A stretch of DNA of 64,000 nt from a virus (IMGVR_UViG_3300006153_000386:32438-96437), one strand, 5' to 3'; shown: positions 27,987 to 43,059, counted from the first letter of the stretch. Program-made: numbers and translations. Notes: a model not told the origin generated them from the sequence alone.

Positions 27987-28280
27987 CTATAAAAATACCT
28001 CCACAAGCCCATATTTTCGATTTTAAGGCACGTTATACGTGTTTATATATAAATGTATCATACAACAATTTTTCTGTCAATCTGGGCAAAATACAACACT
28101 ATTTTACCATGATTCATATTGTGCAATATGTATAAAAAACAACATTAAAATTTATGCAAAAATAAAGTTAAAATACACGTATTCCGTGAAAAAATAGGTG
28201 CTTGCATTAGATTACATTTTGAAGATGGTAAAACAGCTACGTTTTCTAAAAAGTCAAAATTAGATTATGAAGTATTATAA

Positions 28281-28339
28281 ATCCCCTGATGAGCAACGGT
28301 GAGAGCCGACGAAACTACCCAAACAAGGGTAGTCGGGAT
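28281..28339 (+). ncRNA. Type I hammerhead ribozyme
   Basis: Stem I ATCCC/GGGAT; core CTGATGA; stem II containing CGGT-GAGA-GCCG; GAAA; stem III ACTACCC/GGGTAGT; GTC cleavage triplet ending at 28334. Confidence 0.9.
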
Positions 28340-28470
28340 AGTAACACGATCCTACACAAAGCACCACAAGCACATTGATAATTTAATAGACTTTGCATCT
28401 AAGTTGTGATATACTATCTATATAACAGTATCAGCAATATATACAATCACAACGAAAAGGCGGTGATAAT

Positions 28471-28731
28471 ATGTCATTATCCAACGATGATTTAAAAGCG
28501 ATTGAATCAATGTTAGAACCGATAAAGCGAGACATAAGAAGTATACAGTTGACGCTTGAAAACGAGACTAACCGCAATATTAAGATTATTGCCGAAGGAC
28601 ACCTTGATTTAAGTCGTAAACTCAATGACGCTTTAAAGGTTGACAATGAAAAAGAAATGCTTTTAATCCGTGTCAATACACTTGAAAATGAATTGCGCAG
28701 AATAAAAGAACGTATTGAACACATAGCATAA
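28471..28731 (+). CDS. Coiled-coil hypothetical protein with own promoter and terminator
   Basis: RBS AAGGCGGTG; TTGCAT / TGATATACT upstream. Confidence 0.7.
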   Translation: MSLSNDDLKAIESMLEPIKRDIRSIQLTLENETNRNIKIIAEGHLDLSRKLNDALKVDNEKEMLLIRVNTLENELRRIKERIEHIA

Positions 28732-28761
28732 GCAGCTACATAATAAAATATCACAATCCAC

Positions 28762-28802
28762 GGTGTAAAGTCTATTGAATTATTAAGGCTTTACACCTTT
28801 TT
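28762..28802 (+). terminator. Intrinsic terminator
   Basis: GGTGTAAAG...CTTTACACC followed by T-run. Confidence 0.75.
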
Positions 28803-28821
28803 AACTTATGTATCAATAAAA

Positions 28822-29034
28822 TTAAAATTCTCTATAAGCAATGCAATTTGATGAACCAGTGCATTTTGATATTTTCTTATTATATGTACAAGTTTTATTT
28901 GACTTGTCATAAAAAATACATCGTCTTTTATCTGGTCTATCTGTTTTTCTTTGATATGGTATATTTTCAATATGCCATCCTTGAACACCTTCCAATAATG
29001 CGCTTGCTTTATCAATATCTTTATGTTTTGCCAT
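28822..29034 (-). CDS. Small Cys-containing hypothetical protein
   Basis: ORF with AAGG RBS. Confidence 0.45.
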   Translation of the reverse strand: MAKHKDIDKASALLEGVQGWHIENIPYQRKTDRPDKRRCIFYDKSNKTCTYNKKISKCTGSSNCIAYREF

Positions 29035-29070
29035 ATGATCACAACCTTTCTTTTGTTACGTTTGATAATA

Positions 29071-29268
29071 TTACAATGGTTTTATAGCATAGTCGATTTT
29101 GTAGCCAATTACTGACAAAATACGGTTAGCGTCATCAATATTAAAGTTTTTCTTCCTGAATAATTGATATAACGCTTGTCGTGATATATCCAATTTATCA
29201 GCAATAAAATTATATTTAATTCCTTTATTATTTATAAAATCATCAACAAGTATTGCTAATTCGTTCAT
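29071..29268 (-). CDS. XRE/Cro HTH regulator (paralog 1)
   Basis: IADKLDISRQAL...KKNFNIDDANRILSVIGY. Confidence 0.8.
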   Translation of the reverse strand: MNELAILVDDFINNKGIKYNFIADKLDISRQALYQLFRKKNFNIDDANRILSVIGYKIDYAIKPL

Positions 29269-29466
29269 GAATAATACACCTTCTTTCTTTGAAGAAATAG
29301 CATATCAGAAAAAGTATCTACTTGCAAAACTGCAATCCCTTGGAGTACCAACTGAAGAAATAGTTAAACATTAATAATTAAATTCAATCAAAAATAAAGA
29401 GTGTAAATCCTATTGAGTTTTCAAAAAGGGTTACACTCTTTATTAGTACCTTGAAAAGTCAATACT

Positions 29467-29736
29467 TTATTCCGGTTTATGATCTGCTTGATTGTCTGGG
29501 ATATGCTCCATTATATCTCCAGGCTGACAATGTAATTCATTACATATTTTGTCTATAACTTCCATACTGACATATTCATGTTTGGACAGTTTGGCAATAG
29601 TGGCAGACGATATATTTATACGTTGTCGAAATTCTTCCTTGCCTATTTCACGGCGGTTAAGTAAATCTAATAATCTATAATATTTAATCATTATATCACG
29701 TCCTTTATTGTTTGGTAATTGATTATAGCATATCAT
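29467..29736 (-). CDS. XRE HTH regulator (HTH_26-like)
   Basis: ISSATIAKLSK...IDKICNELHCQPGDIME. Confidence 0.85.
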   Translation of the reverse strand: MICYNQLPNNKGRDIMIKYYRLLDLLNRREIGKEEFRQRINISSATIAKLSKHEYVSMEVIDKICNELHCQPGDIMEHIPDNQADHKPE

Positions 29737-29866
29737 AAAAGAAAAGTAAATAAATCTTTAAAAATATGAATAAAAAAGTATTGACAAGCAAAGATGAATT
29801 TGATACAATATCTTTAGAAAGTTAAAGATAAAACAAATAAAAATAAAGAAAGGAGACAACCACAAA

Positions 29867-30127
29867 ATGAAAAAATCAAAAAAGCAGTCACGCAAGAAAA
29901 CAATCATTTATTTTCTGGACAGGGCAAAATACTACAACAACGCTGGTAAATACGATAAAGCCGTTGAAAAAATCAAAATTGCATATTCGCTCTGGGAAGG
30001 TTACAAGAATTGGGAATCTAAGAAAGCTCAAAAGATGTTAGACAAGATCATAGATGCAAGAGAGATAGTAATACATAATTACTTGACAGTAGAAGAAAGA
30101 AAAATTCGTGCAATAATAGGAGATTAA
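29867..30127 (+). CDS. Hypothetical basic protein
   Basis: Promoter TTGACA 29780 / TGATACAAT; RBS AAGGAG. Confidence 0.6.
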   Translation: MKKSKKQSRKKTIIYFLDRAKYYNNAGKYDKAVEKIKIAYSLWEGYKNWESKKAQKMLDKIIDAREIVIHNYLTVEERKIRAIIGD

Positions 30128-30415
30128 AGCATTCAGGCAAGCGGTAAAGCCGTGGGATTCAATTCTAACTTGCCATTTGGTAGAAATACCGAAAAAGAAA
30201 AGTCCAGTGTTACCAGCACCAGACTTTTCAGGGAAAACAAGTAAATGTTTCCTCACTTCTAAACAATTTGAGGTTATCACATTTTCTTGTATCTGTCAAT
30301 CGGCAGATCAATTTCCCAAAAATAGAAGTAAGGATTGTACCTTGACAACTGAAGAAATGGGTATAATAGAGTGTAGCAAAATGTATCTGATTTTGGTATA
30401 CTATATGTATCAAAG

Positions 30416-30652
30416 ATGAAAGGCGGTTACAATATGAGTAATAAAGAACGTGTATTACAGTTGATTGATGATATACCAGATCAAAAACTGATTTATGTTG
30501 TTGATATGCTGAATAGCATTAAAAATCTGCTTGTTGAAGAAGTTGATCCAGACGAATGGGACTTGCAAATGATTAATCAGGCACAAGAAGAGAATGACGG
30601 TACAACAATTTCGTTTGAAAAATTGGCTGATGAATTAGGGGTTACATTATGA
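30416..30652 (+). CDS. Antitoxin paired with RelE-like toxin
   Basis: Small acidic ORF overlapping the toxin start; similar to 48499..48717. Confidence 0.7.
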   Translation: MKGGYNMSNKERVLQLIDDIPDQKLIYVVDMLNSIKNLLVEEVDPDEWDLQMINQAQEENDGTTISFEKLADELGVTL

Positions 30653-30903
30653 GCAAATATACAATAACCTTTGAAAAGGCAGCCGAAAAGTTTTTGAAAA
30701 AGCAAACACAAAAATTACAATCAAACATATTAACAGCAATATATAAACTTCCTGATGGTACAGATATTAAACGGTTAAGGGGTTATGATCTTTATAGAAT
30801 GCGTGTTGGAAATGTTAGAATAATTTATTCCATACATGAAGAAGTAAGGATTATAAACATTGAAAATATAGACAACCGTGGAGATGTGTACAAAAGATTA
30901 TAA
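30649..30903 (+). CDS. relE: RelE/ParE family toxin
   Basis: YRMRVGNVRIIY...IDNRGDVYK. Confidence 0.85.
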   Translation: MSKYTITFEKAAEKFLKKQTQKLQSNILTAIYKLPDGTDIKRLRGYDLYRMRVGNVRIIYSIHEEVRIINIENIDNRGDVYKRL

Positions 30904-30917
30904 GGAAGGATGATAAT

Positions 30918-31139
30918 ATGGTGATTAAGACAAATCAGGAACTTGCACTGGCGATCGAAAAAATCATTGATGATAATGGTATTAAAAAAATATGGTTGTC
31001 TGAAAAGATGGGAATTTCAAATCAAAATTTCAATCGTTTAATGAGTAAAAAAAATTTTTCGCTTGACGATGCTAACAGAATTTTAAATATTATCGGTTAC
31101 GATGCGAAAATAATAATCGAAAATAATTTGAAAAAATAA
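30918..31139 (+). CDS. XRE/Cro HTH regulator (paralog 2)
   Basis: KKNFSLDDANRILNIIGY. Confidence 0.8.
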   Translation: MVIKTNQELALAIEKIIDDNGIKKIWLSEKMGISNQNFNRLMSKKNFSLDDANRILNIIGYDAKIIIENNLKK

Positions 31140-31150
31140 ACAAAAAACGA

Positions 31151-31180
31151 TTGACAGACTTCCCGATACATGATATACTT
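31151..31180 (+). promoter_or_regulatory. Sigma-A-type promoter
   Basis: TTGACA-17 nt-TATACT with extended -10 TG. Confidence 0.75.
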
Positions 31181-31460
31181 AATACAAGTTAAGGGAAGTA
31201 AGAGAAAACAAAAAGAGAGATTGAGCACCGTCCAAAGTTTTCAATCTCTCTAACCACAAGATAAGTTTTCACTTACCATTGATACATTCTATTATATCCA
31301 TTTCTTTAGAAAAGTCAATGAAATTTCCCAAAACGAAAAGGAATAGTGTACCTTGAAAAGTGAATATTGAAGTGTTAGAAAACTGATAGACTTTACTGCC
31401 TAGTTATGGTATACTAAGGTTGATACAATAGTATGATTCCTAATTGGGAGGTGAAGGCAT

Positions 31461-31637
31461 ATGCCAAACAATGAAAAAGAATATAATGGTTATCTTTTTG
31501 ATCAGTTATCAGCAGTTGAACGAATTGAGAAACAAGTTCTAACTGGCGATATGGAAAAAGTAAAAGAAGAAATTGAAACGCTGAAAAGGGAAATTAACCG
31601 TAAACTGTATCAAAGACCACCATTAACTGAAAATTAA
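31461..31637 (+). CDS. Hypothetical protein (58 aa, not in ORF track)
   Basis: RBS GGGAGGTG; MPNNEKEYNGYLFDQL...; followed by terminator GGGTGC...GCACCC-TTTT. Confidence 0.65.
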   Translation: MPNNEKEYNGYLFDQLSAVERIEKQVLTGDMEKVKEEIETLKREINRKLYQRPPLTEN

Positions 31638-31704
31638 ATAGTAATAAATAAAATGGGTGCAGAGTCTATCAGTTAAGCACCCTTTTATGATGTAGGGGGA
31701 AAAG

Positions 31705-31911
31705 ATGACAAATAAAGATTTAGCCAATCTTGTTGATGATACTATAAAAAACACTGGTGTAACTAAAATGCATATTGCAAATAAATTAGGTATAAGTAGA
31801 CAGGCATTTGATAAGTTACTTGACAAAAAACAATTTTCTGTTGACGATGCAAACAAAATTTTAAATATTATTGGATATAATATAGAAAATGTAGTAATAA
31901 AAAAAATATGA
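31705..31911 (+). CDS. XRE/Cro HTH regulator (paralog 3)
   Basis: IANKLGISRQAF...KKQFSVDDANKILNIIGY. Confidence 0.8.
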   Translation: MTNKDLANLVDDTIKNTGVTKMHIANKLGISRQAFDKLLDKKQFSVDDANKILNIIGYNIENVVIKKI

Positions 31912-31930
31912 TAAAATTAATAAAAAATGG

Positions 31931-31964
31931 TTGACAGATTTAAAAATCTATGATATAGTATAAT
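31931..31964 (+). promoter_or_regulatory. Sigma-A-type promoter with palindromic spacer (AGATTT/AAATCT)
   Basis: TTGACA-17 nt-TATAGT with TG extension. Confidence 0.7.
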
Positions 31965-32824
31965 CACAGTAAGGAAATACGAAACGGCAGCCTGCCGCTA
32001 CCAACGAAAAAGCTACCGTTTCACCCAACCACTTAAAAGTGATTGTGTTAATATTCTAACATTTCAATATTCACTTTTCAAGTGTTTTCACACAAATTTC
32101 CTTAAAGTTGCAAAAAGCGTTTTATAAGTGGCGTGCTTATAAAATAACAGCCAAGACAATGATTGAGATTGTAAACGAGGTCAAAGAAACCATAATTGAT
32201 AATATAAATTATCCTTCAAAAGGAAAACGTGCGAGGTAACAGCGTAAAAATGTTTCTTATGTAATCTGAACATACTGGCTGCATCCAGGATTATATGGAG
32301 CGAAAGCGGAAGTTAAATAACAAAAGAACCATATATAGACGCAGTAAGGAAAGCCATCCTTAAACCAGAACAAATACATATGCAGCAAAGCTATGTCATA
32401 GATTCTTTTCTGATTCTTCCTTTTAAGGGTTTTACGAAAAGGATCATATTACAGACAAGTGTTAAGGCGCTGTCTGGTGAGGTTTTTATGGGTTTTGGTA
32501 ATCAAAAATCCAAACAGCCCGGAACGGTATCCGAGGAATGTGCGAGAGACTGTAATGGAGTTATGTTGTGATCAATTTGTTGTGAAAACATTGCGACAAG
32601 AAGTAATGATACAGACAGTTGATAAGACCTTTAAAAGCATATCTTATGTGAGTGGAATAAGAAGGAGATAGGACTGAAGCGTATCTGTATAATGGCAGAG
32701 TTGCAGACATGACGATGTTGCAGTAAACCGTGAAAAGAAAATGTATAGTAATAAAAAATAAATTATGTTACAATATAGACATTATATAATTTTCATGTAC
32801 AAAAATAGGAGGAGGTGAATTAGT

Positions 32825-41436: not shown

Positions 41437-43059
41437 GCGCACTTCACTAAGGAGTCAAAAAACTCCTCCAAAAACAAATATATGTTCTGGTTCAATGTTA
41501 GTTATCGTTGCATTTAACTAATTGAGAGGTATCATAGCCTTGGGCGGCGAGAAATGCCAAAGCATTTTCTTCGTTTAAAACAACCCGCTTGTTCTGTTCA
41601 CGGCTATCCATTAATTCTTCATAGTCCGTTGGCGCAAATGGTTTCTTTTCAGAGATCATATGGTAAATACAGACCATCATCATGCGGGCTGTGGCAATAA
41701 TAGCTTTTTTGTGTCCGCGACGCTTTTTGATTGCATTATATTTCACTGCAAAATAAGGCTGTTTCTTGCTCCTTACGGCAGAAAGGGCACACTGTACCAT
41801 TACGGGTTTCAGGTATTCGCCAGCTTTTGTAATGCGGACAGATTTTTTCTTTCCTGCGGATTCATTATTAGCAGGGGCGAGCCCGCACCAGGAACAGAGA
41901 TGTCCGGCATCGTCAAAGATTTCCATATTGACTCCGGTTTCAGCCAGGACAATGGTTGTACTCAATTCTGTCATACCGGGCATTGTGCTTACGAATTCTA
42001 CAAATTCGTAATAAGGCTTTATGCGGACATAGAGTTCGACTTCCGTCTGGGTGATCATATTTTCAAGGTAATCCAGATGATTACGGGCAAGTTCCAGTTT
42101 TTTGGCCTGATCGGTTTCAATGTTATAGCCTTTGATCGCCTCAATGATTTCGTTTGATGTGGCTTTTGTCCCTTTTTTGATCAGTCTGCGGACAGCCTTT
42201 TCATCAATCGTGTCTGAGGTATGTTCCAGCAGATAGGACATGATCTCAGTGGCTGTTTTACAGAAGGGGTCTTTGAGGACGCTTGCGATCCCAATGTTGG
42301 AAACTGTCATACAATTCTGGATGCGGTTCTTTTCCGAGGATTTCATGCAGACCAGTTTAAAACGGTATCTGGCAAGTTCCCGAAGCTGCCGGAAATCTTT
42401 TGGAGGGATAAAAGAGCATCTGACCAGATCAAACTTGTAGAGGTCGGCAATCCATTTGGAATCCTTTTTGTCGGTTTTTTTGCCCTTGATAGCTTTCACA
42501 TATTTGGGGTGCGTGAGGCAGACATCAATGTCTTTTTCGAGATAATTAAAAATAGGAATCCAATACTTCCCTGTGGATTCCATACAGACATGATAGCAAT
42601 TATTCTCGATAAGCCAGTCGTGAAACTTTTGGATGTCCGAGTTGATGGTGGAAAAAGATTTCCGGGTATACTCGGAAATGCCCTCTTTGTTGGTAGTTAC
42701 GATGGTTGCAACGATAATATTTTTATGGACATCAAGTCCACAGCAGATGGAGTATTTTAACTTCATCATAAGTATCACCACCTTAAAAATGGATAGCAAC
42801 ATTGACTGTCATCCTGTGACTAAATAAATATGGTTTATTACCAATGATAAGGGTCCGGGCTCAAAGTCCCACTTGTTTGTGCTTGAAAGGATGACGGCAC
42901 ATATAACCATGCGGGGTCGGAAATGCATCCGCCACTCATCTCCCCGTGCTCTGTAGTGTATTGCTATCCTGAATTTATTATAAACCAAACAACAACGTTG
43001 CACAACTAGCTCTTTCATGACTTGTTTGTGCCTTGAGCGAAGCGAAAGGAATGATGAAA
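41414..43059 (-). mobile_element. IS110-family insertion sequence (ends approximate)
   Basis: Higher GC than flanks, no terminal inverted repeats seen, TGAAA at both junctions, long 5' non-coding end. Confidence 0.75.
41498..42802 (-). CDS. IS110 family transposase/recombinase
   Basis: DEDD RuvC-like GLDVHK, MESTG, KTDKKD; C-terminal WCGLAP..ESAG. Confidence 0.95.
   Translation of the reverse strand: MLLSIFKVVILMMKLKYSICCGLDVHKNIIVATIVTTNKEGISEYTRKSFSTINSDIQKFHDWLIENNCYHVCMESTGKYWIPIFNYLEKDIDVCLTHPKYVKAIKGKKTDKKDSKWIADLYKFDLVRCSFIPPKDFRQLRELARYRFKLVCMKSSEKNRIQNCMTVSNIGIASVLKDPFCKTATEIMSYLLEHTSDTIDEKAVRRLIKKGTKATSNEIIEAIKGYNIETDQAKKLELARNHLDYLENMITQTEVELYVRIKPYYEFVEFVSTMPGMTELSTTIVLAETGVNMEIFDDAGHLCSWCGLAPANNESAGKKKSVRITKAGEYLKPVMVQCALSAVRSKKQPYFAVKYNAIKKRRGHKKAIIATARMMMVCIYHMISEKKPFAPTDYEELMDSREQNKRVVLNEENALAFLAAQGYDTSQLVKCNDN

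Follow-up and report, generated by a model that had tools for sequence, protein, structure and literature searches.

Long-range complementarities that join promoter-proximal arms to terminators and antisense promoters in the early region of a Lachnospiraceae phage or phage-plasmid

Four pairs of complementary segments, lying hundreds of nucleotides apart and enclosing small genes, are found at the beginning of the rightward arm of a viral DNA from the IMG/VR record set (IMGVR_UViG_3300006153_000386). The window analyzed is the whole 64-kb stretch comprising bases 32438-96437 of this 96-kb virus record (CheckV completeness 40%), and positions are counted from its first base. Its GC content is about 31%, and the strand skew flips sign near 27-28 kb, with leftward genes to the left and rightward genes to the right. 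Around the pairings the GC skew is +0.2 to +0.4. The start of the rightward arm is dense with very small genes, among them several helix-turn-helix (HTH) proteins, a DUF6290/ParE toxin-antitoxin pair, and small proteins without a family. We read this region as the early arm, running rightward, of a large Lachnospiraceae phage or phage-plasmid that is assembled here from small cassettes. A search of a phage collection found no DNA-level likeness to known phage records.

The four pairings fall into two classes according to the partner of the upstream arm. An earlier sequence-only reading of this DNA had proposed all four, and a base-by-base recount found them exactly as described. Segment 28375-28399 pairs with 28762-28786 through 21 Watson-Crick and four G-U pairs of 25, and 30349-30379 pairs with 31279-31309 through 27 Watson-Crick and three G-U pairs, with one mismatch, of 31. 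For 31353-31380 with 32054-32081 the count is 27 Watson-Crick pairs and one G-U of 28 (these arms are taken elsewhere as 31352-31380 and 32054-32082), and for 31381-31394 with 31661-31674 it is 13 and one of 14. In class 1 (the 28375 and 31381 pairs) the partner is a terminator, and in class 2 (the 30349 and 31353 pairs) it is an antisense promoter.

Neither class is explained by chance. The first three pairings were recovered independently by an inverted-repeat search, and the 31352/32054 pair (score 27) and the 30349/31279 pair (score 22) are the two top inverted repeats spaced 100-1500 nucleotides (nt) in the whole window. The best score per dinucleotide shuffle of the window at this spacing was 14-18 (30 shuffles). 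The 28375 pair (score 17) and the 14-nt pair are not significant against shuffles by length alone, and they are kept as real because they are conserved in relatives. A chance origin is excluded by the shuffles for the two long pairs and by conservation for the other two. The sequence-only reading had suggested comparing duplex energies with shuffled controls; the energies are -28.7, -37.4, -39.1 and -17.8 kcal/mol for the 28375, 30349, 31353 and 31381 pairs, with z values of -5 to -10 against shuffled arms for all four. For every arm the partner given here is the top site within 1.5 kb downstream. We think it somewhat probable, jointly with the explanation favored below, that all four are conserved long-range complementarities inside the rightward plus-strand RNA.

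The class 1 arms overlap predicted internal promoters, and their partners are intrinsic terminators behind small genes. The features of class 1 in the window are as follows.

28145-28174, plus strand: candidate upstream early promoter, TTAAAA-18-TAAAAT (promoter scan, 9/12; weak and inferred), with operator-like palindromes around it
28281-28339, plus strand: predicted type I hammerhead ribozyme (Rfam RAGATH-1-hammerhead, 31.5 bits, E 0.026, below the gathering score)
28371-28399, plus strand: class 1 5' arm (P arm), overlapping the -35 box and spacer of the internal promoter (pairing recount, repeat search, homologue alignment)
28387-28415, plus strand: predicted internal promoter, TAGACT-17-TATACT, TG-extended, with its start site downstream of the arm (promoter scan)
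28471-28731, plus strand: cargo gene of 86 amino acids, no Pfam family, with homologues also in other contexts
28762-28802, plus strand: intrinsic terminator with a 9-12-bp stem, a 12-18-nt loop and then five T (hairpin 28762-28797); its 5' strand and loop are the class 1 3' arm
31381-31394, plus strand: degenerate class 1 arm (D+), with three compensatory differences from the 28375 pair
31655-31686, plus strand: terminator behind a gene of 58 amino acids, with a 6-bp stem and a 16-nt loop that is the partner of D+ (hairpin 31655-31682 and four T)

In both terminator cases the complement lies upstream of the predicted start of the gene's own transcript, as the sequence-only reading had it. The internal promoter at 28387-28415 has a counterpart at 31387-31415, again with TAGACT, 17 nt, and TATACT with a TG extension (promoter scan). 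The complement also pairs, as claimed, with the 5' strand and loop of the terminator at 28762 and with the loop at 31661. At 28762 the two structures are mutually exclusive. The hairpin has an energy of -16.3 kcal/mol versus -28.7 for the arm duplex, and the duplex covers the 5' strand and loop, excluding the hairpin. The 14-nt pair covers the loop of its terminator only, and its helix is nested within that of 31352-31380 with 32054-32082.

In a large group of phages and plasmid-like elements of gut Lachnospiraceae, few non-coding sequences are as well conserved as the class 1 arm-terminator pair. A degenerate arm pattern matches 32 IMG/VR loci, 21 of which have a plus and a minus copy 262-567 nt apart, and in GTDB species representatives it matches over 120 stretches, nearly all from Lachnospiraceae. 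Isolates that carry the motif include Mediterraneibacter hominis NSJ-55, Faecalicatena contorta JCM 6483, Blautia glucerasea and Parablautia muri. The comparison set consists of 66 distinct oriented arm-terminator pairs from Lachnospiraceae phage and genome contigs. These relatives have the same design, with an intrinsic terminator (stem and U tract) downstream of the arm and a paired block of about 26 nt. The cargo genes encode unrelated small proteins of 46-309 amino acids. The cargo open reading frame (ORF) is on the arm-to-terminator strand in 59 of the 66 pairs, and the remaining seven are duplicate listings or chance ORFs. The 5' untranslated region (UTR) and ribosome-binding context are conserved before these unrelated genes in the 66 cassettes, so that promoter, UTR and terminator make up a generic expression cassette. 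In 25 of the 66, a ribosome-binding site and start codon are found no more than 45 nt past the terminator, and therefore the terminator stands before further genes. An arm is present within 1.3 kb upstream of 51 of 61 such terminators and five more have a weaker match, against a background of 14-15 of 24 matches.

Compensatory changes are present between the class 1 arms of the relatives, a check that the sequence-only reading had named beforehand. One column of the paired block is U-A in 44 pairs and C-G in 15, and another is U-A in 29 and C-G in 23. One variant has a 2-nt insertion in both arms. True class 1 partners are complementary at 23.0 of 27 positions versus 21.85 when partners are permuted between genomes, and 0 of 5000 permutations reach the observed value. 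In three columns of the 5' arm that fall in the promoter spacer, each of the 35 changed cells is a transition compatible with wobble pairing, and none is a transversion. The possibility that class 1 consists of convergent promoter copies was considered and rejected, as the terminator-side copy has no -10 box in most relatives.

The position of the internal promoter suggests that two kinds of transcript differ in whether they carry the arm. In 47 of 62 homologous cassettes, TAGACT in the arm is followed after exactly 17 nt by a -10 box of the form TAnnnT, usually TG-extended. The -35 box is inside the arm, and RNAs from this promoter would therefore begin downstream of it. Upstream of the arm there is a promoter match of at least 10/12 in 12 of the 62 loci, with the -10 box typically 28-35 nt before the arm. 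The upstream promoters of relatives are often overlapped by operator-like palindromes, and a C/A-rich leader follows. Minimum-energy folds differ accordingly between the two predicted transcripts: the arm pairs with the 5' strand of the terminator in 63 of 66 long RNAs, and the terminator hairpin is present in 63 of 66 short RNAs from the internal promoter.

A hammerhead ribozyme takes the place of the upstream promoter in eight to nine loci including the window, and it would cleave some 40 nt upstream of the arm. The hammerhead-bearing relatives are L008, L032, L038, L041, L053, L092, L097 and L131, and they have two stem II sequences, both of which are paired. In vitro cleavage of polycistronic RNAs is known for hammerheads from prophage-like gene neighborhoods of bacteria such as Clostridium scindens (PMC3088659). 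The role of the ribozymes of such regions has been obscure for more than ten years, and the location of the hammerhead just before the arm suggests that it frees or insulates the arm. Other self-cleaving ribozymes were seen in relatives, with pistol ribozymes in L097 (6991-7060 and 7549-7620; 66 and 57 bits) and a twister-P5 in L189 (1256-1324; 49 bits). A conserved stem with an invariant 16-nt core is found 35-350 nt upstream of 5' arms in L012 (4330-4375), L129 (3000-3065), L184 (130-200) and L192 (3200-3260), and also in L062, L188, L189 and L194. This stem is absent from the window, occupies the position of the hammerhead, and has no Rfam family match; perhaps it is a variant of the hammerhead or a processing element of another kind. 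Rfam scans of the window and the region gave only the sub-threshold hammerhead and ctRNA hits in the region, and scans of the window, region and relatives gave no family for the arm-terminator pairing.

The 3' arms of class 2 are the predicted promoters of conserved antisense RNAs of 75-95 nt. The sequence-only reading took 31279-31309 and 32054-32082 for leaders or attenuators, and they are actually the cores of minus-strand promoters. The features of this class and its surroundings are as follows.

30197-30299, minus strand: antisense cassette 1, with a terminator from 30229 to 30197 (scan) and a candidate promoter TTGACA-17-TAACCT from 30299 to 30271 (read by eye)
30349-30379, plus strand: class 2 5' arm (B+), a copy of an antisense promoter core with a 14-nt spacer (30342-30367) (pairing recount, repeat search)
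30416-31139, plus strand: module B genes, encoding a DUF6290-like antitoxin, a ParE toxin and a small HTH protein (Pfam)
31151-31179, plus strand: predicted strong sense promoter, TTGACA-17-TATACT (11/12 with TG)
31203-31284, minus strand: predicted antisense RNA 2, about 80 nt, ending at a hairpin from 31250 to 31213 and a T run
31279-31318, minus strand: predicted antisense promoter TTGACT-16-TATAAT from 31318 to 31291, ranking first among the promoter matches of the region (11/12) and holding the 3' arm B- (31279-31309)
31352-31380, plus strand: class 2 5' arm (C+), which copies the next antisense promoter but has TAGAAA as its -10 box (31376-31381) (pairing recount, repeat search)
31931-31959, plus strand: predicted strong sense promoter, TTGACA-17-TATAGT (11/12 with TG)
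31975-32046, minus strand: predicted antisense RNA 3, about 70 nt, with a terminator from 32003 to 31985
32053-32082, minus strand: predicted antisense promoter TTGAAA-17-TAGAAT, TG-extended, from 32081 to 32053, which is the 3' arm C- (promoter scan)

Each class 2 minus-strand promoter is followed, about 70-80 nt leftward, by a minus-strand hairpin with a T run. The antisense promoters face the sense promoters, and therefore short antisense RNAs against the first 80 nt or so of the sense leaders are predicted. Antisense RNA 2 has a full-length match to the Rfam model ctRNA_pT181 at 31202-31285 (minus strand) that is below threshold (31.4 bits versus a gathering score of 56, E 0.25). In an RNAalifold alignment of 13 sequences the antisense terminator has an 11-pair stem, with compensatory changes at five of the 11 pairs, and a U-rich tail. 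The sense leader has no conserved hairpin and U tract past the target that would act as an antisense-induced attenuator. Counting the first cassette, three antisense cassettes are arranged in tandem on the minus strand (30197-30299, 31203-31318 and 31975-32082), each with a terminator and a promoter facing a strong sense promoter, and two of them follow a small HTH gene.

Class 2 is also found in relatives, and the genes between its arms vary. The pattern scan for the B-type arm gave one locus, and the scan for the motif that precedes the arms gave three. In the B-type locus L129 the arms form 27 Watson-Crick, five G-U and one A-C pair, and the -10 box of the 5' copy is altered to TGTAAT. The L129 arms enclose an HTH gene alone, without the DUF6290-like/ParE pair found at 30416-30903 in the window; the toxin-antitoxin pair is thus a recent insertion into the window cassette. 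The C type occurs in about ten viral and metagenome loci. Its minus copy keeps TAGAAT in eight of ten loci; in the plus copy the two final positions of the -10 box are variable, and lineage-specific changes in the spacer are common to both arms. The gene enclosed by C-type arms is always a small HTH protein, belonging to at least three families, and the arms are about 80-100% alike. In the relatives the class 2 5' arms come after a conserved element, much as class 1 arms come after the hammerhead. In our view class 2, too, is a device that would work at the level of RNA, akin to class 1, because the differences between its arms are mostly of the wobble type on the plus RNA, because its 5' arms share their position and first bases with the class 1 arms, and because the varied HTH families argue against operators of the enclosed protein.

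The explanation that we favor, with moderate confidence, is that class 1 is a cis-antitermination device that would make a terminator depend on the promoter of origin, and that class 2 is analogous. The class 1 arm probably lets RNAs started upstream pass a stop signal that halts RNAs started locally. An upstream-started RNA (in the window, from near 28145-28174) would carry the arm, and the hammerhead would trim it about 40 nt before the arm. The arm would then capture the 5' strand and loop of the terminator as they emerge, so that the hairpin is blocked and polymerase reads through. The large 12-18-nt loop, made before the 3' strand of the stem, may serve as a toehold and a time buffer. An RNA from the internal promoter would lack the arm and stop at the terminator. 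The terminator would insulate downstream genes from the cassette's own promoter and leave the long phage transcript unblocked. In class 2 the 5' arm would pair with plus RNA that crosses the antisense promoter, immediately 3' of the antisense target, and a long transcript would fold differently from a locally started one at the antisense checkpoint. The same logic of long versus local RNAs would apply, with an effect that might go in either direction. Antitermination in cis had been proposed for the whole set; anatomy, compensatory change and the predicted fold switch support it in the two terminator cases, but not for the 30349 and 31352 pairs.

Several observations weigh against this explanation. 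The permutation of class 1 partners between genomes takes no account of relatedness or of gene conversion from one arm to the other. Frequent gene conversion is argued against because differences between the arms persist across lineages. The sequence-only reading held that the differences are nearly all G-U, which is true in the window but not across the 66 class 1 pairs, where there are 108 G-U, 48 A-C and 108 transversion-mismatch cells. The excess of G-U over A-C (108 versus 48) could reflect a bias toward C-to-T and A-to-G changes on the non-template strand, as suggested by the strongly positive GC skew here. In 37 of the 66 pairs the duplex has a conserved G-G mismatch at its center, and 16 have an A-C mismatch; at the A-C site the terminator side is constrained by its own stem and the promoter side by the -35 box. 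The upstream promoter in the window is weak (9/12). For class 2, the 3' arm has no conserved downstream partner and no conserved terminator after it, a hairpin with four U being present in the window only. The predicted accessibility of the antisense target differs only modestly between long and short RNAs. Finally, the class 2 3' arm and a promoter core occupy just the same stretch, which would be expected if the arms act as DNA but not if they act as RNA.

Such a DNA-level explanation, which concerns mainly class 2, is rather unlikely in our judgment. It holds that the arms are two copies of a promoter or operator core, each recognized by RNA polymerase or by one and the same DNA-binding protein, and that they are inverted because one serves a rightward and the other a leftward promoter; they could act by looping or co-repression. 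In its favor is the extent of the class 2 homology, which covers exactly the -35 to -10 region of the minus-strand promoters. The 3' copies are the best promoter matches of the region and the 5' copies overlap the -35 box of the module's own promoter, a small HTH gene is always found between the arms, and the C arms have an internal direct repeat at a spacing of about 10-11 nt. However, the arms keep their sequence around HTH genes of at least three families. The enclosed protein is therefore not the specific binder, and the idea that C-type arms are its operators was rejected for this reason. A DNA-level origin also leaves aside that the differences between arms are mostly wobble-compatible on the plus RNA, that the terminator-side copy of class 1 usually lacks a -10 box, and that the complementarity runs through promoter-spacer positions that the promoter does not constrain.

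Processing by RNase III is a further alternative, and we consider it improbable. The helices would flank modules of a polycistronic early RNA, and cleavage would produce module-sized messages with paired, protected ends. A helix length of 25-31 bp is compatible with the size of bacterial RNase III substrates. The helices enclose whole modules and lie head to tail, with 31352-31380 beginning 43 nt past 31279-31309. The region and its relatives are rich in self-cleaving ribozymes (hammerhead, pistol and twister), so RNA processing is evidently part of the biology of these elements. On the other hand, the class 1 helix and its terminator are mutually exclusive, which is already a sufficient role for the helix, and the conserved internal mismatches have no obvious role in a processing stalk.

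Recombination sites, in the form of invertible segments, insertion sequence (IS) or miniature inverted-repeat transposable element (MITE) ends, or cassette-exchange linkers, are a very improbable explanation: inverted repeats do flank gene modules, tyrosine recombinase and IS110 genes are present elsewhere in the window, and highly conserved arms around differing cargo would suit homologous cassette swapping, but invertons, IS ends and MITEs were rejected because the cargo orientation is fixed apart from the seven duplicates or chance ORFs, because fixed arm differences that span lineages show that the arms are not homogenized, and because no recombinase lies between the arms, only ORFs of varied kinds, while swapping would explain the conservation of each arm and not the complementarity between them. 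The sequence-only reading had itself named DNA inversion and IS ends, along with a lack of compensatory change, as findings that would count against it, and for the terminator cases the outcome on these points favors that reading.

Two further parts of that reading were not supported. The boxA-like motif to which it drew attention is simply the first 10-12 nt of the pairing arm; it covaries with the partner, and nothing points to Nus factors. The motif starts with CCTTGA, which may resemble the Firmicute boxA, and its TTGA is the -35 box in the minus-strand copies. No boxB-type hairpin and no N-like or Q-like protein was noticed in general scans, which included no dedicated search for them. 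The other part was a cascade in which one module would unlock its successor. All the pairings close the module to which they belong, with helices placed head to tail or nested; since none of them reaches from one module into another, they do not demonstrate a relay. A more tentative idea, and one that we hold to be doubtful, is a chain of modules each closed by a 25-31-bp helix whose 5' arm would be present only in upstream-started RNAs. Such a chain would form a protein-free memory of the promoter of origin, allowing long transcripts to override terminators and antisense checkpoints that locally started transcripts would obey, and it would be a sequence-addressed relay of antitermination and anti-antisense control.

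The logic of the favored cis-antitermination reading is that of classical competing-helix attenuation combined with promoter specificity of the lambdoid type, set in moron-like cassettes. Attenuation by competing antiterminator and terminator hairpins is found in trp-type leaders, riboswitch expression platforms and the pT181 repC preemptor. In class 1, as there, the 5' strand of the terminator would be paired by another stretch of its own transcript, and the two structures exclude each other. The class 1 competitor differs in its distance from the terminator: it lies 260-1050 nt upstream with a whole translated gene in between, where those systems keep it to about 100 nt or less. The class 1 terminator loop is enlarged and itself part of the pairing. 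Class 1 also has no evident ligand, ribosome or tRNA sensor; the promoter at which the RNA starts seems to decide, because the competitor overlaps the internal promoter. Promoter-specific antitermination in lambdoid phages includes lambda N/nut, Q/qut, and the protein-free put RNA of HK022 (PMC9378689). There too only RNAs of a given upstream promoter carry the cis element that passes the terminator, and put acts as RNA alone. However, the lambdoid systems modify polymerase and are processive over many terminators, while a class 1 arm matches one terminator by pairing. No put-like fold was found, and the region has no Rfam match to one. Phage morons are units of promoter, gene and terminator inserted between phage genes, and class 1 resembles them in having its own promoter, one small accessory gene, its own terminator, and variable cargo at a conserved position. 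To our knowledge morons have no built-in complementarity between promoter region and terminator, and class 1 differs in this respect.

Class 2 resembles plasmid copy control in its arrangement. In pIP501 (Inc18), copy control is by CopR and the antisense RNAIII, with convergent promoters pII and pIII (PMC4981023), and the system is related to the pT181 ctRNA. Modules B and C likewise consist of a small HTH gene, a sense promoter, a leader, and a convergent promoter for a short antisense RNA, and the antisense promoters at 31318-31291 and 32081-32053 face the sense promoters at 31151-31179 and 31931-31959. The differences are that the ctRNA model scores 31.4 against its threshold of 56, that no antisense-dependent attenuator was found in the sense leaders, that no rep gene follows, and that an upstream copy of the antisense promoter core is missing from pIP501. 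In the long-range processing stalks around 16S and 23S rRNA, too, a functional unit of a long primary transcript is closed by complementary segments that lie hundreds of nucleotides apart; the units here are protein-coding modules, and cleavage is hypothetical.

A literature search found no prior description of arm-terminator pairing. What sets the design apart is a competitor that lies beyond a translated gene and overlaps an internal promoter, a terminator loop that joins in the pairing and, in class 2, a partner that is an antisense promoter region. This second type of partner, the promoter region of an antisense RNA, was not found described in the literature searched. If the reading of class 1 is true, it is a simple, protein-free way to condition a terminator on the promoter at which the RNA starts, and it would solve the problem of hosting self-expressed accessory genes within a long phage operon. 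The design would be a ready part for synthetic biology, an addressable terminator bypass.

Some neighboring features of the window were noted. Near-palindromes of the type CACG...CGTG are present at 28031-28043 and 28175-28188, amid divergent promoters at 28080 to 28052 (minus strand) and 28145-28174 (plus strand), at the point where the coding strand switches. From its sequence, this place looks like the operator region of the phage's genetic switch, and a similar pair of promoter and operator was seen in the relatives L032 and L038. Directly downstream of the first terminator are three leftward genes at 28806-29736 (minus strand), two of which encode HTH proteins; read-through past this terminator would be antisense to these possible repressor genes. 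A bidirectional-looking terminator at 29393-29444 resembles the class 1 terminator arm and is the second-best partner of the 28375 arm (-17.5 kcal/mol), and just past it, at 29446, is a copy of the arm-start motif that has no partner. An IS110-family transposase gene is located on the minus strand at 41498-42802, within the rightward arm. After the third antisense cassette there is a long non-coding stretch at 32105-32750 that is richer in GC, and short conserved blocks are found downstream of the C- arm in L031, L189 and L194. This stretch is reminiscent of the RNA II/RNA I arrangement of ColE1, in which a sense RNA has an antisense RNA against its 5' end.

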